DNA of 64,000 nucleotides from an uncultured Bacilli bacterium (lineage in GTDB: Bacteria > Bacillota_I > Bacilli_A > RF39 > UBA660). A program made the translations under genes and the position numbers. Below the pieces are notes generated by a model, which saw nothing but the letters and a program-made list of their open reading frames with translations, searched no databases and had not been told where the DNA came from. The DNA is taken from NCBI GenBank assembly GCA_934096295.1, contig CAKOLL010000001.1, positions 180,229 through 244,228 of the forward strand. The letters are read 5' to 3'. This document shows, one piece after another, positions 18,336 through 57,044 of the stretch (its first letter is position 1; every line of letters starts with the position of its first letter).

Positions 18336-19517
18336 TTATTTATTTTGGGGTATTCTTTTTAAAGTTATATCTTTTTCGCTACTTAATTGTTCTTCTATTT
18401 TCTCACTGTAAATTTTTAATATTTCAATTTCATCAGAGAAAAATAAATTTAGACCATGGATAATATTGATAAGATCTGTTGCATTCTTTTTTCCTAAACC
18501 AGTGATTAATGGTAGATCTTTTCTTTTAAATTTTATAATATCACCGATAGTTGTTAAATAGTGATGATTTTCACTTAAGGGGTTTACTAATCTTTTTTTA
18601 AATCCTAAACTGTATAGTTTTATAGTTAATAAAGCATCAAGTGGTAATTGTAATTCTAATAGTTTTTGAGTTTTGATATCAATTGAATCAAAATTTGCTA
18701 AGTATGTATCCACCTTTTTGTATAGTGGAACAAAAATCCCTAAGCTTTCTAAATCATACAATAACTCTTTAGAAATTGTTTCATTTGTTGATGTAATAAA
18801 TTTTAAAACATCTCCGGTTGTTTCCAATCTTGTATGGTATTTATATAAATTTCTATAAGGTTCTAACTCGTTATTATGAATTAAAAAACTTGCTCTTAAA
18901 TTTTGTTTATTTGGATATGAAATTGTTAATTTTAAACGTTCTTCTTCAGTTAAATCATCAATAAATTTTAAATTCATATCTGCAATAGGTTTTGAAACTT
19001 CTTTTATTAAAGTTTCAGAAATTTCTAAAGATAATAAATCACTTTTGGCATATGACAATAATTCACTTAAATAACCTATTCCAACCTTTGCAAAAGTCAT
19101 TAAAGTTCTATTGGTTAGTCCTAGCTCACCTAAAGGCATATTTTCTAGACTTTGTTGTTTTTCAGATAGTTCTATAGTACTTGGATTTTTATATTCGCTA
19201 ATACTCTTTGTTTTTATATACATTGAAATAGTTTCTTTTCCTCGAGTTATTATTTGTCTTACTCTTTCTGGAGTTTTAGATATTTTTCTGCTAATTGATC
19301 TTAATGACTCACAATTACCTGTAAGTATTCCAAAATGCAATCTTAAAACATAGGTACCGGTTTCATTTAAAGGTGCTACACAATTCATATTTAAATCAAA
19401 TAGTTTTGTTGTAATATCTTTAATTATTTCTGCTCTTCTTTGAAAGCTTGCTAAATATTCATAATCTTTACCAAAAGTATCTATGGCAATATATTCATAT
19501 AGTTCATTAAAATTCAT
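18336..19517 (-). CDS. Hypothetical protein carrying a sigma-70 region-4-like HTH module
   Basis: 393 aa. Residues around 55-100 (LRLHFGILTGNCESLRSISRKISKTPERVRQIITRG) resemble sigma-70 region 4.1/4.2. HhH-like segments follow (LGELGLTNRTLMTFAKVGIGYLSELL; ITGLGKKNATDLINIIHGL). Confidence 0.5.
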   Translation of the reverse strand: MNFNELYEYIAIDTFGKDYEYLASFQRRAEIIKDITTKLFDLNMNCVAPLNETGTYVLRLHFGILTGNCESLRSISRKISKTPERVRQIITRGKETISMYIKTKSISEYKNPSTIELSEKQQSLENMPLGELGLTNRTLMTFAKVGIGYLSELLSYAKSDLLSLEISETLIKEVSKPIADMNLKFIDDLTEEERLKLTISYPNKQNLRASFLIHNNELEPYRNLYKYHTRLETTGDVLKFITSTNETISKELLYDLESLGIFVPLYKKVDTYLANFDSIDIKTQKLLELQLPLDALLTIKLYSLGFKKRLVNPLSENHHYLTTIGDIIKFKRKDLPLITGLGKKNATDLINIIHGLNLFFSDEIEILKIYSEKIEEQLSSEKDITLKRIPQNK

Positions 19518-19583: not shown

Positions 19584-21989
19584 TTATTTAAGACGTTTAA
19601 GAATACTTTCATCTAAAATAATTGTTTTTCCGAATGTTGTTTGATATGTATCTAGGCATTTTTTTATAAAAGTTATACCTCTTTGGATACGTGTTGATGC
19701 AGCACTTAAATTTATATTCAAGCTTAATGCAATATCTTCGGTAGAATATTTTGTCCCATCAACCAGCCCAAAATATAACATGAATGGTTTGCGTATTTCA
19801 TCAGGCATAACATTAACCAAATCATAATAAACTTGGCTTACTTCTTCTTTTGTTTTAGTATTATTACTCTTAGTAATGTCTTTATTAATATCTTGCATCC
19901 TTTTTTCATCCAATCTTTTTTGCAAACCTTTTATTAATAACATTAAGTTCTTACTTTCATGTACATTTAATTGATTTAGATAAGGTTGATCTAAATTTTC
20001 TCCGAAAGCTTTTTTTAGCAATAAGTTTTCTTGTATCTCTGGGATTGATTCAATCTCACATTCTAAAATTTCATTTAATTTTTTTCGTAAGAACGGAGTC
20101 GGTTCATTAACTTTTCGACGAAGTGATGTGATATTATTATAAAAGTATGTTTTATCTTTTTCATCCATATTTGTTAAATCAGCATCTAAGTCAAAGTTTG
20201 AGCCATAATATTTAATAAGCATTTGATAAAATTTTGTATCCTTGTTTAAAGAATTTATAATAATACTTAATTCTTCGATAGTTACATTTAATAACTCCCA
20301 CAAGGCTTTTCTTTTACTTTTTTTCTTTGCCTCAGCTTTTTCAAGCGGAGTATTATTTTGACTTGGCCAAAAATTCACTCTTTTCATTCGATATTTCCAT
20401 CTAGTTAATTTATCATGAAATAATGTTTTTTCATATTTTGAAAGTAAATTATAGTTACATTTATCTGTTCCTTCTTTTCCAAAAGCTTTTACCATTATTT
20501 GATAAATTATAGTACTTTTATCTTGAGTTTCCCAGAGAAATTTAATTCTTTTACACATTTCTTCATATTCTAAAGTTTCTTTATTATAATCATTTAAAAA
20601 TTCTATTAGTGTTTTACAATATTTTTGGTCTTCTTGTTCTTTAATACACTTATAATATTTTGCTAACATCTTATCAATAACAAGTTTAATGTCTTTTTGA
20701 TTAAATTTACTTGGAACTACTTTCAAAGTCAAATTATTTCCAAAATTTTTGTATAGTATATTTTGAGCAGATGATTCTTGCTGTAAAACTAAGGCATATA
20801 TATCTTCTTCTTTTAAAGGTAAATACTCTAACAAAGATATTTTTATTACTTTTGAACAAGCACGCATTTTTTCCAAAGCTTTTTTCTCTTTTTGACGAAT
20901 TGTTTCTCTGGTTACATTATATATTTTGCTAACTTCTTCTAGAGTTTTATTTTCAATAAATCTTAATGTTATTATTTTTCTTTCTTCATCATTTAAACAT
21001 GATAGTAATTGATTTAATGTTAATATATTTATTGAGTCATCTTCAAATTCTCCGGATTTTAGAAATTGATACATACTAGAATTTTCATGTTCTTCGGGAT
21101 TTAAAGGAGCATCTAGAGATATATTTTCTGAAAAAGTCATTAACAACTTAGATAAGGCATCAGTTTCCATATGTAAAAAAGATGCAATTTCTTCTAGAGA
21201 TGGTTCTTTATCTAACTTATAAGATAAAATTTTTAATGCTTCAAGGTATTTATTATAAATTATATGTTGATTAATTGGGATTCTTATTGTTCTTCCTTTA
21301 TTTAAAATAGCTCTATTTATATATTGTCTTACCCAATATGTGGCATATGTACTAAATAAAAATCCTAAAGATGCGTTATATTTTTCCATTGCTTTAATCA
21401 TACCTATGGTTCCTTCATTTATTAAATCTAATTTTTCTAAGCCACAATTTAAATGTTTATTTGCAATAGATACAATTAATCTTAAATTCCCTTCGATAAC
21501 TTGATTTTGATAAAAAATATACTTTTTTTGATAATACTCTTTTTCTTCTTTTGAGATAGCTTTTTCATATAGTTCTTTATATTCTTGAAACTTAATTACA
21601 TATGCTATAGATGTTTCTCTTTTCATCGTGGGAATGTCACTTAGTTCTTTGAAAAACAAATTATCAGCACTTAAGTTTGCTGTTTCTTCAAATGTGTAAT
21701 TTAAATTGTCTTCTAAAAGTATATTTTTAATACTGGCATAAACATAGATGATTCCTCCGTTTATATCTCCGAATCTTTTATAGATTTCATCTTCCGTATA
21801 TTTATTTTTTCCTCGTAAGAGTTGGGCAAAATAGTTATCAATTATTGAACTTTTTTCTAACGCTTTAAGCATAAATGTAAAAATATCTTCAACCTTATTT
21901 TCAGTTAAGATGGAATTTATATAACTTAATTTTATATTACTTGTTTCTATTTTAGATTCAATATCTTTTATAATATTATCAAAATCCAT
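19584..21989 (-). CDS. Giant sigma-70 family protein: a sigma-A-like core with about 430 aa of C-terminal repeat modules and a second terminal HTH
   Basis: 801 aa. Region 1.2-like segment (DNLFFKELSDIPTMKRETSIAYVIKF). Region 2 (EGNLRLIVSIANKH...DLINEGTIGMIKAMEKY...FSTYATYWVRQYINRAI...RTIRIP). Region 3. Region 4 (ITLRFIENKTLEEVSKIYNVTRETIRQKEKKALEKMR). Then repeated KNFGNNL, KAFGKEG, KYYGSNFD, KAFGENLD modules. Terminal LYFGLVDGTKYSTEDIALSLNINLSAASTRIQRG is region-4-like. Confidence 0.75.
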   Translation of the reverse strand: MDFDNIIKDIESKIETSNIKLSYINSILTENKVEDIFTFMLKALEKSSIIDNYFAQLLRGKNKYTEDEIYKRFGDINGGIIYVYASIKNILLEDNLNYTFEETANLSADNLFFKELSDIPTMKRETSIAYVIKFQEYKELYEKAISKEEKEYYQKKYIFYQNQVIEGNLRLIVSIANKHLNCGLEKLDLINEGTIGMIKAMEKYNASLGFLFSTYATYWVRQYINRAILNKGRTIRIPINQHIIYNKYLEALKILSYKLDKEPSLEEIASFLHMETDALSKLLMTFSENISLDAPLNPEEHENSSMYQFLKSGEFEDDSINILTLNQLLSCLNDEERKIITLRFIENKTLEEVSKIYNVTRETIRQKEKKALEKMRACSKVIKISLLEYLPLKEEDIYALVLQQESSAQNILYKNFGNNLTLKVVPSKFNQKDIKLVIDKMLAKYYKCIKEQEDQKYCKTLIEFLNDYNKETLEYEEMCKRIKFLWETQDKSTIIYQIMVKAFGKEGTDKCNYNLLSKYEKTLFHDKLTRWKYRMKRVNFWPSQNNTPLEKAEAKKKSKRKALWELLNVTIEELSIIINSLNKDTKFYQMLIKYYGSNFDLDADLTNMDEKDKTYFYNNITSLRRKVNEPTPFLRKKLNEILECEIESIPEIQENLLLKKAFGENLDQPYLNQLNVHESKNLMLLIKGLQKRLDEKRMQDINKDITKSNNTKTKEEVSQVYYDLVNVMPDEIRKPFMLYFGLVDGTKYSTEDIALSLNINLSAASTRIQRGITFIKKCLDTYQTTFGKTIILDESILKRLK

Positions 21990-22068
21990 ATGTATCCCCC
22001 CGGTTGCGATTTATTATAACATAAAACCTAAGAGTTTTGTATATAATTTTTATAAAGAAGGAGTTATT

Positions 22069-22764
22069 ATGTTTTTAAATTTTTTAAATATTATCAAAGA
22101 AATGTTATTTTTCACGGGATCTTACTCAAATAATGTTTTTCCAGAGCCTTTATCAAGCGAGGAAGAAGAAAAATGTATCAAAGAAATGTTGGAAGGATTT
22201 ACGGATGCTAGGAACAAATTAATTGAACATAATTTAAGATTAGTTGCTCACATTGTAAAGAGGTTTGATGTTAAAGATGTCGATACGGATGATTTAATAA
22301 GTATTGGTACAATTGGGTTAATTAAAGGGATAGACACTTATAAAAATAATAAGAAAACGAAGATTACTACTTATGCTGCAAGATGTATTCAAAATGAAAT
22401 TTTAATGCATTTTAGGAGTCAAAAAAAGATTGGTCCTACAGTTTCTTTAAATGATGCTATTGGTCATGATAAAGAAGGAAATGAAATTAATTTAATAGAT
22501 GTTATTAAAGATAAAGATGTTGATTTATTTGAAGAATTAGACTTAAAGAATAACATAACGTTGTTAGAAAAATATTTAAAACTACTTAATAAAAGAGAAA
22601 AAGAAATTATTATTAAAAGATATGGTCTTAATAATACTAAAGATATGACTCAAAAAGAAATTGCGGATGATCTTAAGATTTCAAGAAGTTATGTTTCAAG
22701 AATAGAAAAAAGAGCACTTACTAAAATGCTCACTGAATTTATTAAAAATAAAAATATAGATTAA
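22069..22764 (+). CDS. sigK: Sporulation sigma factor pro-sigma-K (sigma-27), uninterrupted
   Basis: 231 aa. Pro-sequence ...YSNNVFPEPLSSEEEE. KLIEHNLRLVAHIVKRF, ISIGTIGLIKGIDTY, TTYAARCIQNEILMHFR and ISRSYVSRIEKRAL match Bacillus SigK nearly residue for residue. Confidence 0.85.
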   Translation: MFLNFLNIIKEMLFFTGSYSNNVFPEPLSSEEEEKCIKEMLEGFTDARNKLIEHNLRLVAHIVKRFDVKDVDTDDLISIGTIGLIKGIDTYKNNKKTKITTYAARCIQNEILMHFRSQKKIGPTVSLNDAIGHDKEGNEINLIDVIKDKDVDLFEELDLKNNITLLEKYLKLLNKREKEIIIKRYGLNNTKDMTQKEIADDLKISRSYVSRIEKRALTKMLTEFIKNKNID

Positions 22765-23375
22765 TTATCTTTAATAACTAAATTACACAATGGTATTATA
22801 AAACTACCTATAGAATTACCTAGGACCATTATTCCAGTGTATCCTAGAGTTTTAAGTGACCAGATGTCCGCAACAGAAAAATAATACATATTAGCAATAC
22901 AGTGTTCAAATCCACAAAGTATGAATACTGCAACACCTAAATAAACAACTAAATACTTGCCAAAATCTGTTTGTTTTTTAAAACCATTTACAGCATAGTA
23001 CATTAATAATCCACAAAAAATAGATAATATAAATATACTTAAAATATTATCATTTAATTTAGCATTTGCTAATATTAAAGATTTTTCATAAATTTTATCA
23101 TAAATTCTTGTATATCTTAAAATAAAACCAACACTACAAGCACCAATAAAGTTACCTATTAATGTAATTATCAATTCTTTTATATATTTTAAATTTAAAT
23201 TAGTTATTAAATAACCTATTTTTCCAGTATAAAGATTTAAATTATAAATAAGTACTCCGAATAAACCAATAGAAAATAATGATGCACCAATAACTTTATT
23301 TTCTATTGATAAAAATACTGTACCACCTATAGCAATCATTATTCCAGCTAAAAAACTTTTAAATAATACTTTCAT
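22761..23375 (-). CDS. Small polytopic membrane protein (possibly formate/nitrite-transporter-like)
   Basis: 204 aa with about 6 TM helices. FLAGIMIAIGGTVFL resembles the FNT-family N-terminal motif. Assignment is weak. Confidence 0.45.
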   Translation of the reverse strand: MKVLFKSFLAGIMIAIGGTVFLSIENKVIGASLFSIGLFGVLIYNLNLYTGKIGYLITNLNLKYIKELIITLIGNFIGACSVGFILRYTRIYDKIYEKSLILANAKLNDNILSIFILSIFCGLLMYYAVNGFKKQTDFGKYLVVYLGVAVFILCGFEHCIANMYYFSVADIWSLKTLGYTGIMVLGNSIGSFIIPLCNLVIKDN

Positions 23376-23745: not shown

Positions 23746-23988
23746 TTAAAATGCCTCAATATTTAATTTAATTTTATGCATTTTATGAATGTAAGCATAG
23801 GCATAAACCAAAGTTCTTAAGGCATGTGCATTTTTACCGCCCTTACCTATTACATATTTCATTTGATCTTCTGGAACCATTACTTCGATTATTTTAGTTT
23901 CATCTTCCATAAATTCTTCAACTTTAATCATTTCAGGATCTTCCACAAGACTTTTAACTAAAAATTCAGTATATTCTACGATATTCAT
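23746..23988 (-). CDS. khpA: KH-domain RNA-binding protein (UPF0109 / KhpA, YlqC-like)
   Basis: 80 aa with VIGKGGKNAHALRTLV KH GXXG motif. Immediately downstream of rpsP, as in Bacilli. Confidence 0.8.
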   Translation of the reverse strand: MNIVEYTEFLVKSLVEDPEMIKVEEFMEDETKIIEVMVPEDQMKYVIGKGGKNAHALRTLVYAYAYIHKMHKIKLNIEAF

Positions 23989-23990
23989 AA

Positions 23991-24263
23991 TTATTTACCT
24001 TTTTTTGCATCATTAAATGCTTTTAATATTCCTTCATTTTTGAAGATTGCTTTTACTGTATCTGTTGGTTGTGCTCCATTTGCTAACCATTTTAATGCTA
24101 CTTCTTTATTAATAGAAATTTCAGCTGGATTTGCAATTGGATTGTAAGTACCTACTGTTTCAATAAATCTTCCATCTCTTGGAAATCTTGCATCAGCAGC
24201 AACAATACGATAGAATGGTCTTTGTTTTGAACCCATTCTTTTAAGTCTTAATTTAACAGCCAT
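23991..24263 (-). CDS. rpsP: 30S ribosomal protein S16
   Basis: [42 protein letters not shown] is the canonical S16 sequence. Confidence 0.92.
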
Positions 24264-29477: not shown

Positions 29478-29942
29478 TTAATTTTCATAATCAATTTTTG
29501 TCTTAAAGAATAATCTCATACTTTCTTTGGAAATAATATTATTGCATGGTTCTCCGTCTTTATGATTACCTCTGGCATCTATCCACGGTTTTTCCATATG
29601 CGTCAAATATTCTAAATATTTTCCGTCATAAATGCCATATGTATTCCAAACGTCATACAAAAAATTGACTAGTTTTTTATCTAAAACTGGTACTTTTCCT
29701 TTAGGCCTATCTATTGCTTGAAAGCCATATTCCTTATATTCAAAATAAATACCTACGTTTGCTGGTCCATGTGCCCATGCTTCAAAATCTTCACTAAAAA
29801 GTTCTTTATCATACATCGCTAAATGATACCCTTGTGCATAATATAATATCTTTTGCAATTTTAATGGTGTAATTGTACTTCCTGCATCTCTATCTACAAT
29901 TTGCAAGAAAAAGTTTGCTATGTCAAATATAGTTAACTTCAT
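29478..29942 (-). CDS. Panacea domain (DUF4065) antitoxin-like, SocA-like phage-associated protein
   Basis: 154 aa. MKLTIFDIANFFL...ITPLKLQKILYYAQGYHLAMYDKELFSEDFEAWAHGP matches the Panacea/DUF4065 signature. Confidence 0.75.
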   Translation of the reverse strand: MKLTIFDIANFFLQIVDRDAGSTITPLKLQKILYYAQGYHLAMYDKELFSEDFEAWAHGPANVGIYFEYKEYGFQAIDRPKGKVPVLDKKLVNFLYDVWNTYGIYDGKYLEYLTHMEKPWIDARGNHKDGEPCNNIISKESMRLFFKTKIDYEN

Positions 29943-46773: not shown

Positions 46774-47817
46774 TTATTCATTATCGCTATTATTTTCATT
46801 TAAATATTTATTATAAAATTCATCCATTGAAGAAATGTATTTTTGATCTTGTATAACTCTAAATTTTTCATATTCTTTTTCAGCTTTTTCTACTACTTCT
46901 TTATGTGATATACTGCCACTATTATTTAATACTTCTTTTCTTCTAAACTTTAATAAATCATCAGTTGCATCTATCCATTCTTTCATTGTCATAACATGTC
47001 TTTGTTTTGCTTCATCTTCGGCAAATACTAAAAACATATTTGTTAAATCTTTTAAATTGTTCATTTCTTCTTCGTTTAAATAATTTTTTGCAATAATCAC
47101 ATCATATTTATATATTAAACCATCAGGAGAATTTTTCCAAGTTGTTAATCCCATATGCTCTTCTTTTGAATTAGCCCTTTTAAAAATAAGTTCCGCAGCA
47201 GTATGTCCACTTATAGCATAGTGCAGCTTATTTTGAACTATTTTAAAGAAAGTATAAGCGTCTTCTGATTTTGGATTGTAATCTGCTGCTGTTGCAATAA
47301 ATAAATCAGTGATTTTTTGATATGCCATTCTTTCACTTACTCTGATTGTTTTGATACGTTCTAATAATTCATCAAAATATTTTGCATCATATTTATTTCC
47401 ATTTATAAAACGTTCATCATTTAATGCAAAACCCTTTGTCATATATTCTTTTAATATTTTTGTTGCCCATATTCTAAATTCTGTTGCTTTTTTAGAATTA
47501 ATTCTATAACCCACAGCAATTATAGCATCAAGACTATAAACTTCAGTATTATAGTTTTTTCCGTCAGGTGCAGTTATTTCCATTTTGGAAACAACTGAAT
47601 TTTTATCTAATTCGTTTTCTTCAAATATATTTTTTAAATGTTTTGATATTGCTGGTACACCAACCTCGAAAACTTTTGACATACCTTTTTGTGATAACCA
47701 TAAAGTTTCATCTTTATAAATAGCATCTACTATAATATTACCTTCACTATTTTTATATATAATTAATTTATTATCTTCCATCAATACTCTCCTTTCCTTT
47801 AGTTTTTCATAAGTCAT
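46774..47817 (-). CDS. RhuM family virulence/defence-island protein
   Basis: 347 aa. IIYKNSEGNIIVDAIYKDETLWLSQKGMSKVFEV...YNTEVYSLDAIIAVGYRINSKKATEFRIWATKILKEYMTKGFALNDERF matches the RhuM N-terminal signature. Confidence 0.75.
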   Translation of the reverse strand: MTYEKLKERRVLMEDNKLIIYKNSEGNIIVDAIYKDETLWLSQKGMSKVFEVGVPAISKHLKNIFEENELDKNSVVSKMEITAPDGKNYNTEVYSLDAIIAVGYRINSKKATEFRIWATKILKEYMTKGFALNDERFINGNKYDAKYFDELLERIKTIRVSERMAYQKITDLFIATAADYNPKSEDAYTFFKIVQNKLHYAISGHTAAELIFKRANSKEEHMGLTTWKNSPDGLIYKYDVIIAKNYLNEEEMNNLKDLTNMFLVFAEDEAKQRHVMTMKEWIDATDDLLKFRRKEVLNNSGSISHKEVVEKAEKEYEKFRVIQDQKYISSMDEFYNKYLNENNSDNE

Positions 47818-49846: not shown

Positions 49847-52800
49847 TTATTGAGAATTTTTTACTCTATGCAATGTGGAATCATAATGTATAGATTCTTT
49901 TGAATTAGTAAATGTTTTATTATAAGCGTTAATAACAGTTTTTATAAAAGTCATACCAGTATCAACTTTTAAAGATACTTCTTCTTCACTTATTCTTAAG
50001 AATTTTGCTATTTGTTTAATAGAATATTTTTCATTAAATATTCCTAGAAATAAATATAATATCAGTTTATAATCTTCTGGCATAAAATCTATTATGACTT
50101 TATAATATTTTTTTAAGTTTTCTGCATCGTTATTAAGGTTCGTTGTTTCTTCTTTTGAGGTTCTGCTTTTTATTTTTTCTTTTAAATTATTTATTTTAAT
50201 TCGAAGAATATTTTTTTCATTTTTGGTAAGATAAGAAGTATCATAAGTTTTAGTAAAATCACTACCAAAAACTTTAACAAATAATGAATATATTTTAGTA
50301 TTTTTACGTTCACTATTAAATATATTTAAAACTTCTTCATAAGTTATACCCAAAATAATATTAAGTGTCTTGCCATCATTTCTGCTTTTTCTGTTTCTTG
50401 TTATATTTTGTCTACTTTTATTGTTTATTCTATTTTTTATTTTTTCTAAGGTTTTAGCTAATACCGCTAAAGAAACATTATTTATAAACTTTAAATCGAG
50501 ATTTTCTCCGAAAGCCTTAGTAAGCACTTCCAAATTTGTAGGGGTTGCTACCAATTTTATATCGCTTAGGCTTTCATTAATTAATTCTTCTAGAGTTTTA
50601 CCTTTATAAATATTATCCTCTTGAGCTATTTTACTTAATATATCAAGCCTTCTTAATAAAAGGGCATAATCGTTTTCAGAGAATTTACTTTTATCAAGGA
50701 ACTCATTTAAATCATTACCAAAAGCTTTATAAAGATCTTCATTTTTATCTAAGGCATTCATAAATCTTTCTGTGTCTTCATATGATAGTCCCAATATTTC
50801 ATTTAATTTTTTAGAATTGAATATATCAGTTTCTTGTTGTTTTTTATCCATAAGTTTACTTATTTTGCTTACTACTTTGCTTTTTTTATCTATTCTTTTT
50901 TTTATTTTTTCTAAGGTTTTAGCTAATATTGCTAAAGAAACATTATTTATAAACTTTAAATCGAGGTTTTCTCCGAAAGCCTTGGTAAGTACTTCCAAAT
51001 TTGTAGGGGTTGCTACCATTTTTATATCGCTTAGGCTTTCATTAATTATCTCTTCTAGAGTTTTACCTTTATAAATATTATCTTCTTTGGCTATTTTACT
51101 TAACATACCAAGTCTTCTTAATAAAACGGCATAATCTTTTTCAGAGAATTTACTTTTATCAAGGAACTCATTTAATTCATTGCCAAAAGCTTTATAAAGC
51201 TCTTCATTTTTATCTAAAGCATTTACAAATCTTATTGTGTCTTCATAGGATAATCTCAACATTTCATTTAATTTTTTAGGACTGAATGTATCTGCTCCTT
51301 GTTCTTTTTTACTCATAAGTTTACTTATCTTGCTTACTACTTTGCTTTTTTCATAATAACTTAAATTATCTAAATTACAAATTCCTTTTCCATCTGGGCC
51401 AAAAGCTTTTATAAATATATTTGATATTGTGTTGTCTTTTCTTGTTAATTCTTTCCATAGTAAATCTATATTATCTAAAGCAAATATTTCATTTAAAGTT
51501 TTGCCACTATACTCTTTACCATAACTTTTGTAATCATTATTAATTATGTTTTTTACTGCTTGTTTTAGATATGTTGCCTCTTTAGAATTCAAATTATCTT
51601 TATAAACTTCATCTAAATTTGGACCAAATGCTTTGTAAAATAAAGTTCTAATATAAGTTGAAACTTTTGCACAATAATCAAAATCATTAACCTTTTCTTT
51701 TCCAATTAAATCTATTAAGGTTTTACCATTTAAAATGATTCTTTCATTTTTTTCACTTTGAATGCTTTTTGTGTTATTTTTCAAGAAATTTTGCATTTTT
51801 CCTAAAGCTTTTTCTTCAATTTGTCTTACTCGTTCTCTAGTCATTTTGTACATTTTGCCAATTTCTTCAAGAGTATAATCTTCTCCATATCTTTTGGTAA
51901 TTATGTCTTTTTCTCGTTCAGTTAAACATTCTAAAAATGTTAATACCGCTGTTTTATTTACAATGGCTTCTTCTAAATTAATTTTATCTGGTACAAAATT
52001 ATAACGATTTGTTTCTGTATCATCTTTTACCTCGGCATCTAAAGATGTTAAAAAGCCAATATTATTTACTAGTTCTTCAATATTAGCACAATCTTCATTC
52101 ATTTCATCTGCTATTTCTTTAATTGATACTTCTCTTCCTAAAGTATTAGTTAATTTTTCCTCAACTTTCATAACTTTTCGGTATTTTTCTTGAACACGGA
52201 CGGGAATTCTTATATTTCTTTCTTTGTTATGAATGCTACGCGTAATCAAAGATTTAATCCAGTAATATGCATAACTTGAAAATGAGGAACCATAACTAAA
52301 ATCATAATAATCAATTGCTTTAGACATACCAAAGAATCCTTCATTAACTAAATCAAGTAATGTCATATCCGTAGATGCTATTTTTTTTGCAATATATACA
52401 ATTAAACGAATATTTCCCTCGATAATTAAATTACGGTATTTATCGCAAATATCTACTTTACCAAGTGATTTAGCTTCTTGATAAATTTTAATATATTTTA
52501 AAGTATCTTCTTTTGATAATATGGGTAAATCCGACATGTCTTTAAAAAACAAATCAACTGAATCTAAAGAATTTATATTTATTTCTTTATAATCAATTAT
52601 TTCTTCTTTAATTAAATTTTTTATTATTCCGTAACTCGTAAGGATATTTCCATTTAGTTCTCCGTACCTTCTAATAAGTTCTTCCTCTGTATATTTTTTA
52701 TTAGAAAAAAAGCTAGATAAATAACTATCTATAGTAGGATTTTCACATAATAATGCCATGAATTTAATACCATTTTCTATATTTTTATCTATTAAAATAT

Positions 52801-52906
52801 TGCTAAAATCTTGTAGGGATATAGTTTTATTATTTATTTTTTCCACTAAAACTTTTATAATTTCTTGCATAACAAACCTCCTGATGAATTTATTATAACA
52901 CGGCAA
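49847..52906 (-). CDS. Giant sigma-70 family protein, paralogue of the 801-aa one. A sigma-A-like core is followed by about 640 aa of C-terminal repeat modules and a terminal HTH.
   Basis: 1019 aa. N-terminal segment is paralogous to the 801-aa protein (IDSYLSSFFSNKKYTEEELIRRYGELNG... against IDNYFAQLLRGKNKYTEDEIYKRFGDING...). Region 2 is EGNIRLIVYIAKK...DLVNEGFFGMSKAIDYY...FSSYAYYWIKSLITRSI...RNIRIPV. Region 4 is TLEEIGKMYKMTRERVRQIEEKALGKM. Many [KY]AFG-x-[ND]L modules follow. Terminal KYSIKQIAKFLRISEEEVSLKVDTGMTF is HTH-like. Confidence 0.75.
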   Translation of the reverse strand: MPCYNKFIRRFVMQEIIKVLVEKINNKTISLQDFSNILIDKNIENGIKFMALLCENPTIDSYLSSFFSNKKYTEEELIRRYGELNGNILTSYGIIKNLIKEEIIDYKEININSLDSVDLFFKDMSDLPILSKEDTLKYIKIYQEAKSLGKVDICDKYRNLIIEGNIRLIVYIAKKIASTDMTLLDLVNEGFFGMSKAIDYYDFSYGSSFSSYAYYWIKSLITRSIHNKERNIRIPVRVQEKYRKVMKVEEKLTNTLGREVSIKEIADEMNEDCANIEELVNNIGFLTSLDAEVKDDTETNRYNFVPDKINLEEAIVNKTAVLTFLECLTEREKDIITKRYGEDYTLEEIGKMYKMTRERVRQIEEKALGKMQNFLKNNTKSIQSEKNERIILNGKTLIDLIGKEKVNDFDYCAKVSTYIRTLFYKAFGPNLDEVYKDNLNSKEATYLKQAVKNIINNDYKSYGKEYSGKTLNEIFALDNIDLLWKELTRKDNTISNIFIKAFGPDGKGICNLDNLSYYEKSKVVSKISKLMSKKEQGADTFSPKKLNEMLRLSYEDTIRFVNALDKNEELYKAFGNELNEFLDKSKFSEKDYAVLLRRLGMLSKIAKEDNIYKGKTLEEIINESLSDIKMVATPTNLEVLTKAFGENLDLKFINNVSLAILAKTLEKIKKRIDKKSKVVSKISKLMDKKQQETDIFNSKKLNEILGLSYEDTERFMNALDKNEDLYKAFGNDLNEFLDKSKFSENDYALLLRRLDILSKIAQEDNIYKGKTLEELINESLSDIKLVATPTNLEVLTKAFGENLDLKFINNVSLAVLAKTLEKIKNRINNKSRQNITRNRKSRNDGKTLNIILGITYEEVLNIFNSERKNTKIYSLFVKVFGSDFTKTYDTSYLTKNEKNILRIKINNLKEKIKSRTSKEETTNLNNDAENLKKYYKVIIDFMPEDYKLILYLFLGIFNEKYSIKQIAKFLRISEEEVSLKVDTGMTFIKTVINAYNKTFTNSKESIHYDSTLHRVKNSQ
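50390..51350. repeat. Near-perfect tandem duplication (2 copies of about 465 bp) inside the 1019-aa sigma gene
   Basis: Two protein repeats of about 155 aa (SKVVSKISKLM[SD]KK...YKAFGN[ED]LNEFLDKSKFSE...TKAFGENLDLKFINNVSLA[IV]LAKTLEKIK) with about 90% identity. Matching DNA strings, e.g. TTTTTCTAAGGTTTTAGCTAATA at about 50441 and about 50906. Antisense ORFs 50370-50609 and 50772-51074 are near-identical. Confidence 0.75.
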
Positions 52907-52954: not shown

Positions 52955-53890
52955 TCAAGAACCTTGGTTTAATCCGTAATTTTTTAAATTATCTATCTTT
53001 TTTATTATCTCAACATTTTGTAAAAAGTATTTTTTTACATATTTATTTTCTGGCCATAATGGAAAATTATCATTAATGTATTTTGTACATTTTTTTATAT
53101 CTTCACTATTAAAATTGGATGTTCTCATTAATCTGTTTGTAGTTCCAAATAGTACATGACTTATCGCTGCAAATTCAATTTTTTCTTTAAATTCATCAAA
53201 AATTTCTCTTTTTTTAGCAAAATCAATTATAGAATCCATCGCTATTAATGTATCAAGTTGATTTTGAGTATTAGATTGTAGGGATGAATCACTATGAACT
53301 ACATAAGTATATAAAGCTTCATCAACATATGAAACTGAATTATTTATCAATATGACTTTAAAAATAAATTCTAAGTCTTCTGCAATTTTTAAGTTTGAAA
53401 AAGAAATATTGTTATCTACAATTACTGATTTATTAAATAGTCTAATATCGACGGATGGACTTTGTAACAAATCTAATTCTTCTTTTGTTCTTTGTGTATT
53501 ATTTCTAATCCCATTTACTTCTTTAAATCCTTTTAACATGCATGAAAAACTATTATCTTCATTAATATTACTATGTAAGACTTCAAGACAATTTTTTTCT
53601 ATGTAATCATCACTATCTAGAAAGTATAGGTATTTACCTTGGGATTTAGATATACCTAAATTTCTAGTATAACCGACTCCTTCATTTTTAGTATTTTTGT
53701 AATATTTAATTCTTTTATCTAACTCTTTATATTTTAAAATAATACTTTCAACATTATCTATAGAATAATCATTTATAATTATTATTTCTATGTTATTATA
53801 AGTTTGCTCTATAACCGACTTTATGCATCTTTCAAAATAATTTTCATTATTATATACAGGTATTATTACACTAATTAAATCTTTTTCCAT
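52955..53890 (-). CDS. Family 2 glycosyltransferase
   Basis: 311 aa. ISVIIPVYNNENYFERCIKSVIEQTY...IIINDYSID is the GT-A N-terminal signature. DSDD motif. Confidence 0.8.
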   Translation of the reverse strand: MEKDLISVIIPVYNNENYFERCIKSVIEQTYNNIEIIIINDYSIDNVESIILKYKELDKRIKYYKNTKNEGVGYTRNLGISKSQGKYLYFLDSDDYIEKNCLEVLHSNINEDNSFSCMLKGFKEVNGIRNNTQRTKEELDLLQSPSVDIRLFNKSVIVDNNISFSNLKIAEDLEFIFKVILINNSVSYVDEALYTYVVHSDSSLQSNTQNQLDTLIAMDSIIDFAKKREIFDEFKEKIEFAAISHVLFGTTNRLMRTSNFNSEDIKKCTKYINDNFPLWPENKYVKKYFLQNVEIIKKIDNLKNYGLNQGS

Positions 53891-55208: not shown

Positions 55209-57044
55209 TTATTTTTTTCTTATTAAACTAGCTTCTTTAGGACAACCATCGTAAAAACTATCTCTTTGAGAATCCTTAACACAATATTCTAAATTATGAT
55301 AATTCCTTTCTAATAAAGTTTTAATTTGTTCACGTTCTAATAATGGAGCGTATAATTTCCTTAATGAAGTATTTTCTTCTAGAAAACTTTTCATGACTAT
55401 TTTTAATCTAGGAAAACAGGCTATAGAGATTTTGTTATTTTTTAGCAAAAATCCATATTTAGCTAACTCTAGACTTGGCAATATTATTTCTGGTAATTCT
55501 TCGTTTTTCAACAAGAAATAATCTCCGACTTCTGCTAAAGATGGAGCATATAAAATTCTACATTTTTCATTATCAGAAAGAAAACTATGTCCTACTTTTT
55601 CTAATTTAGGTAAATAAACCTCTTGTGCTTGGCATACTTTTAGAGAAAAATGTCCTACTGTTTTTAAGGATGGAAAAAACAATTTATTTATTGACTCATT
55701 TAATTCTAAAAACTCAGAACCAACTATTTCTAGTTTAGGCATATTTACCCTTTTTAGAATAACGTTATTAGTCATAAAACAATCGCCAATTTCAACTATA
55801 TTTGGTAAATCAATTTCTTTTAGTCCAAAGTTTTTATATAAAAAATATGAACCTATACTTTGACAATTATTAATTGATAAAATTTCAAGAAATGTTGCAT
55901 TTTTTAAAACGTAATCTCCGATAACTTTTGTAGATGGTGATCTAAATTCAATTATTTCTAAATCTTTTGTTGATAAAAATCCTTTGGGGAGTTCATTTAC
56001 ATTTTCTAAAAACATTTTTTTGATTCTATTAAAATGGTTTACAATTAATTTTGCATATTTGCCATCAGCATTAAAGATTTCAACAATTTTATTTTCTTTA
56101 TCTTTTGTAATTGTAATTTTTTCAATATGATTAAAAACTCTAGGAAATGTTTCTATATAAACCTCATAATCGTTAATATATTCAATATATGATGCATAAG
56201 TATCTATGTATTTTGATTCTAATTCTATTATGAAATTATCAATTACTAAATATTTATTTTTATCAAAATGTTCTACCTTAAAATTTTTAATTATAATATT
56301 ATCTGGGCAATAATAAGTATTATTTCTTTCAAAATTGTATTTATAGTATTTCCCATCATTAGCTAACACATAATTTTCAAGTTCAAATTTAGAAGATTGA
56401 TGATTTTGTTTTAATCCATACGTTTTTTCAAAACTTTCAGTTAAACCTTCAACTATTCTATCTAAATCATTTCCAAAGGTTGCATCGGGATTGTCTACAC
56501 TATGATTATATCGGTTCTTTATTGATAATATATGTGATTTATCTTTAGTAAACTGAATACTTATTACAGATGTACCATAAGCATCTTCACGTTTTGGATT
56601 TTTATAGTCTTCTCTTTTTATTTCAGCAACATTATCTTTAACTGCAAAAAACACTCTGCACTCGGATAATCTTTCTTGCCTAAATGTACATAGTTTTTCA
56701 CCTTTAGCATAATACTTTTTAAAAGCCTGTACTTCTTCTTCTGTATGACACTCTACTAAAGTATACCCAACTGATTTCATCAACTCCTCTGGAGTTTTAT
56801 TACATTTATTTTGTTTTATATCCAAATTTTTTGAAACATATATAAATTCAATAAATTGTGACTGTTTATGATTTTTCTTTATATCATTTAATAAATTATG
56901 ATTTTCGTGAAATTTACTTAACAATCTACTTGATAAAAATCCGGGTGTTTCTAAAAGCGATGCAAAATTAGCTCTACAAAAGTGCATCATATCTTCCCCA
57001 AATTTCTTTTTTATTATTTTTAAATCATCCATCTTTACCCCCAA
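55209..57044 (-). CDS. Cytoplasmic protein with an unknown N-terminal 330-aa domain and C-terminal BspA-type leucine-rich repeats (LRR_5)
   Basis: 611 aa. No signal peptide. C-terminal half has about 8 reiterated units of about 23 aa ending in [IV]G-x-x-F[LS], e.g. IVEIGDCFMTNN, LEIVGSEFLELN, LKTVGHFSLKVC, LEKVGHSFLSDN, LAEVGDYFLLKN. Confidence 0.6.
   Translation of the reverse strand: MGVKMDDLKIIKKKFGEDMMHFCRANFASLLETPGFLSSRLLSKFHENHNLLNDIKKNHKQSQFIEFIYVSKNLDIKQNKCNKTPEELMKSVGYTLVECHTEEEVQAFKKYYAKGEKLCTFRQERLSECRVFFAVKDNVAEIKREDYKNPKREDAYGTSVISIQFTKDKSHILSIKNRYNHSVDNPDATFGNDLDRIVEGLTESFEKTYGLKQNHQSSKFELENYVLANDGKYYKYNFERNNTYYCPDNIIIKNFKVEHFDKNKYLVIDNFIIELESKYIDTYASYIEYINDYEVYIETFPRVFNHIEKITITKDKENKIVEIFNADGKYAKLIVNHFNRIKKMFLENVNELPKGFLSTKDLEIIEFRSPSTKVIGDYVLKNATFLEILSINNCQSIGSYFLYKNFGLKEIDLPNIVEIGDCFMTNNVILKRVNMPKLEIVGSEFLELNESINKLFFPSLKTVGHFSLKVCQAQEVYLPKLEKVGHSFLSDNEKCRILYAPSLAEVGDYFLLKNEELPEIILPSLELAKYGFLLKNNKISIACFPRLKIVMKSFLEENTSLRKLYAPLLEREQIKTLLERNYHNLEYCVKDSQRDSFYDGCPKEASLIRKK

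Follow-up and report, generated by a model that had tools for sequence, protein, structure and literature searches.

A predicted giant sigma factor with a tandem array of region 4-derived modules in an uncultured Bacilli bacterium

The gene and its expression signals

The 64,000-nucleotide stretch analysed here (the window; contig CAKOLL010000001.1 of assembly GCA_934096295.1, positions 180,229 to 244,228) comes from an uncultured Bacilli bacterium whose genome is low in GC (~25%) and encodes SigK; its relatives carry the label "Bacilli bacterium" and are metagenome-assembled genomes from the human gut. Two genes in the window encode unusually long proteins of the sigma-70 family. The longer of the two, here called the giant sigma factor, is predicted from its sequence to belong to the sigma-70 family and to carry repeat domains of an undescribed family: behind a SigA-like core, the ~630 residues that follow region 4 are made up of seven degenerate copies of this region (sigma-4) and an eighth, better-preserved one.

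An earlier note on this DNA, made from the sequence alone, had described an open reading frame of 1019 aa. The frame is indeed uninterrupted (49847..52906, minus strand) and its longest form, started by TTG, has this length, but an ATG at 52870, 12 codons further inside, follows AGGAGG at a distance of 6 nt, and P0001 from the database (1007 aa, 100% identity when rounded, with a few residues differing) begins at the same ATG. This ATG is likely the true start, which gives a protein of 1007 aa and leaves the TTG form as a merely mechanical maximum. Residues of the giant sigma factor are numbered on the 1007-aa form throughout.

49847..52870, minus strand: giant sigma factor gene, 1007 codons plus stop (open reading frame, ribosome-binding site, P0001)
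52877..52882, minus strand: ribosome-binding site AGGAGG, read directly
52892..52900, minus strand: TGTTATAAT, extended -10-like motif 22 nt 5' of the ATG, read directly

The motif TGYTATAAT is found ~22-25 nt 5' of the start codon in every giant sigma gene examined, i.e. the 52870 gene, its paralogue in the window (22013..22021, minus strand) and the homologues in the loci L001, L005, L007, L008 and L010 (where it reads TGTTAAAAT), and the surrounding intergenic DNA is divergent. Such conservation suggests that a SigA-type extended -10 promoter drives the giant sigma genes, possibly including autoregulation. A generic scan for promoters and terminators was uninformative at 25% GC, with 31 promoter-like sites against 28 expected and no terminators.

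A SigA-like core

The sigma core of the protein comprises 375 aa and is thus as long as a whole SigA (368-371 aa).

52571..52870, minus strand: acidic helical N-terminal domain, family-specific, at the position of region 1.1 (aa 1-100; family conservation)
52196..52570, minus strand: sigma regions 1.2 and 2 (aa 101-225; PF04542, SigA alignment)
51971..52195, minus strand: sigma region 3 (aa 226-300; PF04539, SigA alignment)
51752..51970, minus strand: canonical sigma region 4 with TLEEIGKMYKMTRERVRQIEEKALGKM (aa 301-373; PF04545, SigA alignment)

Pfam recognises Sigma70_r2 (PF04542, E 3.3e-11, exceeding the gathering score), Sigma70_r3 (PF04539, E 4.5e-9, 36.7 bits against a cut-off of 25.3) and Sigma70_r4 (PF04545, E 2.6e-23, 81.7 bits against 24.1), and the closest solved relatives are Firmicute SigA proteins (Staphylococcus aureus 8x6f with 5e-40, Clostridioides difficile 7l7b and Bacillus subtilis 7ckq). 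The SigA-like regions 2 and 4 proposed in the earlier note are thereby borne out. Residues 103-361 are collinear with residues 97-356 of these group 1 factors, from region 1.2 to region 4.2, at an identity of only ~35-40%. The recognition helix of region 4.2, TRERVRQIE, is the same as in SigA, which makes a preference of the core for a TTGACA-like -35 element likely, while region 2.3/2.4 is changed (YYWIKSLITR versus TWWIRQAITR in SigA). Further differences from SigA are the extra tail and the N-terminal domain: the Pfam scan of the giant sigma factor found neither Sigma70_r1_1 nor Sigma70_r1_2, aa 1-100 had no Pfam match, and the alignments with SigA begin only at ~aa 100. This N-terminal domain (pI 4.97) is conserved through the family.

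Searches with the core alone returned primary sigma factors of many phyla at merely 33-41% identity, together with one close relative that has no array (P0168, 362 aa). On the RpoD equivalog model TIGR02393 (RpoD_Cterm, cut-off 354 bits), the giant sigma factor scores 169.7 bits and its paralogue 193, and on NF006666 the giant sigma factor reaches 159 bits against a cut-off of 572. These comparisons indicate a divergent, SigA-derived paralogue of SigA and not an ordinary housekeeping factor. One could still argue that this protein or its paralogue is the housekeeping sigma factor, and that the whole lineage runs its basal transcription on an array-bearing SigA. The collinearity with full-length Firmicute SigA, primary sigma factors as nearest sequences and the SigA-type look of the gene's own promoter are in line with this idea, and so is a family member from another locus, P0105, that exceeds the RpoD_Cterm cut-off (367 versus 354 bits), with two more members at 322-325 bits. 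However, both window proteins stay below this cut-off, the determinants of region 2.3/2.4 are altered and genomes hold two to four giant-sigma-type genes, which makes a housekeeping role improbable. Moreover, dnaG adjoins a family gene in none of the loci read, which are sigK-polA loci or, for the 52870 gene, a GT2 locus; a dnaG-sigA operon is the usual context of sigA in Firmicutes.

Two further assignments were rejected. MzaA, the sigma factor of the MZA anti-phage system, matches by the shared sigma core alone (NF041931, 163 bits where 800 are required), and an extracytoplasmic function (ECF) factor with a C-terminal extension would have regions 2 and 4 only, whereas region 3 is present here and the core is SigA-like.

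A tail made of sigma-4 copies

51533..51733, minus strand: module 1, sigma-4-derived (aa 380-446; jackhmmer independent E-value (i-E) 8.9e-19)
51299..51514, minus strand: module 2 (aa 453-524; jackhmmer i-E 2.3e-24)
51077..51286, minus strand: module 3 (aa 529-598; jackhmmer i-E 1.1e-22)
50885..51076, minus strand: module 4, short type (aa 599-662; i-E 2.7e-18, low predicted local distance difference test (pLDDT) in the full-length model)
50612..50824, minus strand: module 5, duplicate of module 3 (aa 683-753; i-E 3.2e-23)
50417..50611, minus strand: module 6, duplicate of module 4 (aa 754-818; i-E 5.8e-18)
50165..50389, minus strand: module 7, best-conserved type (aa 828-902; i-E 3.3e-27)
49874..50155, minus strand: terminal sigma-4-like domain with intact helix-turn-helix (HTH) (aa 906-999; hhalign versus canonical sigma-4)
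50415..51351, minus strand: 465-bp tandem duplication with two modules per unit (Tandem Repeats Finder: 2.0 copies, 91%, no indels)

With a single module as seed, jackhmmer recovered exactly seven modules in the giant sigma factor (i-E about 1e-18 to 3e-27), fewer than the "ten or more" counted in the earlier note, and four in the 801-aa paralogue. The boundaries of the jackhmmer hits differ slightly from those listed for modules 1 (380-444), 4 (598-662) and 6 (753-818). The modules measure ~65-75 aa each and follow the consensus K-T-L-x-E-I-L...S-x-E-E-h...h-h-K-A-F-G-x-N/D-L-D...L-S-x-x-E-K...L-K-K. Motifs that had been listed as occurring twice are repeated, though not independently, as both stem from the single 465-bp tandem duplication. 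This event gave rise to the 1007-aa allele; the close relatives P0002, P0003 and P0005 are without it and one unit shorter (852 aa), so module number is polymorphic.

The AlphaFold2 model of module 7 (pLDDT 87.5, predicted template modelling score (pTM) 0.74) has four helices at positions 11-15, 19-27, 34-43 and 58-79, and an extended loop of 14 residues replaces HTH helix 1, so that no intact helix-turn-helix is formed. The full-length model was merely moderate (pLDDT 61, pTM 0.24) and was therefore kept out of any inference on the arrangement of domains.

Pfam assigned no family to 43 individual modules (weak matches to ExoX-like_C, Rsa3 and the like were scattered chance), none of the window's own modules reached a Pfam threshold, the sequence profile search of a module against the PDB gave a best E not below 0.39, and the Foldseek comparison of the module model with PDB and BFVD yielded no significant match. 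An hhalign comparison of 69 family modules with the family's own region 4 was unconvincing alone (P 0.018), and significance was reached only with an enlarged, diverse module profile. A profile search among 1.84 billion representatives delivered ~107 module-bearing clusters (50% identity) with up to 19 matched stretches per protein, and the iterated hidden Markov model (HMM) of the module converged at 681 modules from 122 proteins, never recruiting canonical sigma-4. Aligned with 39 canonical sigma-4 sequences, the 681-module profile obtained a Prob of 75% (P 2.5e-5, 46 columns), and a subset of divergent modules, of which YTKEQVDAVIKNLSDEEKELIFTRYGEDLD exemplifies the most divergent, obtained 91% (P 9.4e-7), its 61 aligned columns reaching from region 4.1 to where region 4.2 ends; reversed-sequence controls of the latter gave P 0.12-0.44. 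Pfam models Sigma70_r4 or r4_2 also match the arrays of P0106 (4e-14), P0108 (9e-13) and P0102 (1e-12), the best stretch spanning just the first ~20-30 positions of either model.

In profile-profile alignment, modules and terminal domain are thus collinear with sigma-4 (PF04545 / PF08281) and share with it the RYG/AFG turn as well as the basic helix at the C-terminus, while the modules of the window differ by scores below the Pfam thresholds and by the loop in place of HTH helix 1. Both the alignments and the model of module 7, in which the loss is seen directly, lead us to interpret the modules as sigma-4 paralogues that have lost the first HTH helix, in agreement with the kinship to region 4 supposed in the earlier note. 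Given that they stay below Pfam thresholds and that their HMM never takes in canonical sigma-4, they would constitute a distinct, undescribed subfamily.

The HTH reported at the very end of the protein is sigma-4-like as well: the last ~95 residues of the tail align with canonical sigma-4 with a Prob of 94.8% (P 5.3e-8, 55 columns), and a sigma-4-type domain forms the C-terminal end in 90 of the 123 module-bearing proteins. At the positions where sigma-4 contacts DNA with R/E/R/R/Q, this terminal domain has E/E/E/S/L. Its recognition helix (SEEEVSLKV) varies over the family, and the version of the paralogue (STRIQRG) is not acidic.

Selection, paralogy and the wider family

Compared with the orthologue in L007, the ratio of nonsynonymous to synonymous substitution rates (dN/dS) is 0.27 in the sigma core, 0.19-0.46 in the segments of the array and 0.26 in the terminal domain, which indicates purifying selection on the tail as strong as on the core. 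The gene as a whole is intact and under purifying selection, and the conserved extended -10-like motif lies 5' of it together with a strong ribosome-binding site. Between the two tandem copies there is a 9% difference with neither indels nor stops (dS 0.20, dN/dS 0.37), a divergence that does not fit a collapsed or duplicated assembly.

The second giant sigma gene of the window has the same architecture with a shorter array.

19584..21989, minus strand: paralogue of 801 aa with the same N-terminal domain, sigma regions 2-4, four modules and a terminal sigma-4-like domain

A distance of 27.9 kb separates the two genes, which lie on the same (minus) strand, much as the earlier note had it, and their products share 30% identity over 792 aa (E 6e-76), including the C-terminal HTH and the N-terminal ~100 aa, which had also been recognised as common to both. 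The sigma parts alone are 37% identical and fall into two separate clades, and the two genes are best regarded as true, old paralogues. Sixteen contigs, the longest of 441 kb, contain the exact 801-aa sequence, and the same architecture recurs in relatives and on many independent contigs from several sources, so that the claim of a real and maintained architecture has gained support.

These observations also bear on the suspicion that the tail is a functionless repeat expansion, or the long reading frame a pseudogene or else an artefact of assembly or fusion. A module number that ranges from 0 to 17 across strains and lineages (on the same core elsewhere 0, 3, 5, 6 or 7) and the poor conservation of module surface positions might be expected under this explanation. 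Nevertheless, it is close to refuted by an array dN/dS as low as that of the core, by the undamaged yet diverged tandem copies, by the many independent contigs and by the retention of the terminal domain in most module-bearing proteins.

The family also includes array-only proteins, proteins whose array lies on the N-terminal side of the sigma part, a 362-aa relative without an array and one RpoD-grade member. In L010, the gene directly 5' of a giant sigma gene encodes an array-only protein. The array cassette thus appears self-contained, existing alone, beside sigma genes or fused to a sigma core at its N- or C-terminal end. The array-less P0168 (L011 6001..7089) consists of the family N-terminal domain and regions 2-4 and ends a few residues past region 4, hence the core can exist without the tail; its gene comes after topoisomerase genes (GyrB/GyrA- or ParE/ParC-type). 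P0034 (L015 5184..10064), with 1626 aa, has a ParB-type HTH (PF17762, E 1e-10) between region 4 and an array of 11 modules. Module clusters apparently all originate from uncultured genomes and metagenomes, and the few named entries among them are labelled "hypothetical protein" or, generically, "sigma-70 family".

Leaving aside certain ECF groups, to which C-terminal domains are fused, the usual picture of a sigma factor is that of a compact protein with two to four domains. Extended ECF proteins have two sigma domains (sigma-2/sigma-4) and SnoaL-like, TPR or similar extensions of ~100-200 aa. In groups such as ECF41 and ECF42, such fused C-terminal regulatory extensions modulate sigma activity in cis (PMC3426412, PMC8999054), and the giant sigma factor is alike in being a sigma-70-family protein with additional C-terminal domains. 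Unlike them, it possesses regions 1.2 and 3 within a SigA-like core, and its tail is made of sigma-4 copies. No description of sigma factors with arrays of sigma-4-derived domains was found in the literature or the library models searched. We know of no second example of a promoter-binding domain that exists in seven to seventeen tandem copies behind a SigA-like core, has lost its DNA-reading helix and is maintained by purifying selection.

Possible roles of the tail

The core would act as an ordinary sigma subunit that binds core RNA polymerase and reads promoters of the -35/-10 type, probably including TG-extended -10 promoters such as that of its own gene. The tail might then be pictured as a flexible arm, like beads on a string, that extends from sigma-4 at the holoenzyme's upstream face. 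With HTH helix 1 of module 7 turned into a loop and the arginines of the terminal domain replaced by acidic or neutral residues, a second sequence-specific promoter reader is probably not what the tail provides. Since the elements for reading DNA are lost and the sigma-4 scaffold is kept, a protein-interaction or regulatory arm seems most likely among the readings considered. Such an arm might use the surfaces that a normal sigma-4 presents to the beta-flap tip helix, to anti-sigma factors and to activators; at the beta flap it may imitate the genuine sigma-4 or compete with it, or it may bind regulators directed at sigma-4 or recruit partners. We tentatively favour this reading, in which the protein is an alternative sigma factor and its tail a tethered, multivalent arm for protein interaction or regulation, at a probability of roughly 0.45.

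Its main rival is an arm that contacts DNA. Here, the long basic module helices, the terminal HTH or both would touch DNA 5' of the -35 element, as the C-terminal domains of the alpha subunit (alpha-CTDs) do at UP elements, and provide extra promoter affinity or a second recognition element. The array is basic (net charge +17, pI 9.25), in contrast to an acidic sigma core, with conservation of basic residues in module columns 2, 34, 54 and 65-67, some of which correspond to the end of region 4.2 (KALRKLR). In addition, the HTH of the terminal domain is complete, and the tail begins at the C-terminus of sigma-4, which is established to face upstream DNA in holoenzyme structures. On the other hand, the modelled module is without its first HTH helix, the terminal recognition helix is acidic at the arginine positions of sigma-4 and variable over the family, and the charge argument is weak because proteomes of organisms with 25% GC are generally lysine-rich. 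We consider this second arrangement unlikely, albeit the one to be taken most seriously beside the protein-interaction arm. A small helical domain on a flexible linker that reaches 5' of -35 and contacts DNA or regulators makes the alpha-CTD a functional analogue only: the modules have no sequence or fold relation to it, the tail is attached to sigma and not to alpha, and there are eight domains instead of one.

Several points weigh against the protein-interaction arm. Its role is deduced solely from what the domains have lost and retained. A basic array with a basic cluster at the end of the long helix makes non-specific DNA contact possible, and with the non-acidic terminal helix of the paralogue, DNA binding by the terminal domain is possible within the family. 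Poorly conserved module surfaces, finally, would fit a spacer as well as a binding platform.

In a bolder version that we deem a long shot, the modules keep the protein-binding face of sigma-4 and each docks a beta-flap tip helix or a regulator, so that a single giant sigma factor or array-only protein holds several RNA polymerases or regulators, and an uncultured gut lineage of spore-forming Bacilli runs part of its basal transcription with multivalent sigma factors. The latter part is proposed because P0105 is RpoD-grade. To our knowledge, such an organisation of transcription initiation is not known in any bacterium. If the tail does modulate polymerase binding or recruit partners, this would be a new way to regulate or organise transcription initiation and a natural experiment on the roles of sigma-4 besides DNA reading, and the module would provide annotators with a new domain model.

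Genomic context

Immediately upstream of the giant sigma gene is the GT2 gene mentioned in the earlier note (52955..53890), with DUF5680/Maf on the other side. The same note had placed the giant sigma gene at the edge of an accessory region and regarded it as a possible regulator of that region, which is not supported, as gene order in L007 (dS ~0.25) is identical to the left and to the right: GNAT, MFS, LysR, ABC, His_Phos, metallophosphatase, a 141-aa gene, GT2 and the sigma gene, followed by DUF5680, Maf, RhuM, GTPase, RNase HII, sulfatase, TopA and Fmt. Differences between window and L007 are confined to a small Bro-N-like open reading frame (L007 only) and a BspA-type leucine-rich-repeat gene (window only; 611 aa, 55209..57044, minus strand), the latter a strain- or species-variable insertion.

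Family members in the other loci read adjoin sigK. The locus of the paralogue is common to relatives and runs rpsP, KH, FNT transporter, sigK (divergent), giant sigma, then polA; it is found in whole or part in L005, L008, L010 and L013. In the window, sigK is intact (22069..22764, plus strand; NF004471, 307 bits against a cut-off of 252) and faces away from the 801-aa gene across 79 bp of intergenic DNA; the locus also takes in 22761..23375 and 23746..24263. A sigK-like open reading frame with sigma region 2 lies directly 5' of the giant sigma gene in L001, L002, L006 and L009. Two loci near sigK are particularly rich: L010 (5627..15755) has the array-only P0017 (1135 aa, 11 modules), an RpoD-like giant sigma factor of 1201 aa and another of 775 aa, and L013 (2301..12329) has a 782-aa protein without Pfam match, P0105, a 280-aa protein with region 2 only and a giant sigma factor of 848 aa.

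A gene for 393 aa (18336..19517, minus strand) lies 66 bp 3' of the paralogue, in the spot where relatives have further sigma-like genes. It encodes a fusion of a sigma-4-like HTH (aa ~46-107) and an alpha-CTD-like domain (PF03118, 2.5e-8; TIGR02027, 6.6e-9), with a motif resembling half a module (IDTFGKDYEYL) in its N-terminal part. Membership in the array family was rejected, as this motif is all there is and the module HMM does not match.

The tail had no match in phage and plasmid collections (tblastn) and thus no sign of a mobile origin. Elsewhere in the window, a SocA/Panacea antitoxin-domain gene and a RhuM-family gene (29478..29942 and 46774..47817, minus strand), situated amid the housekeeping genes PriA, TopA, Fmt and RNase HII, may be small mobile or defence-related insertions.

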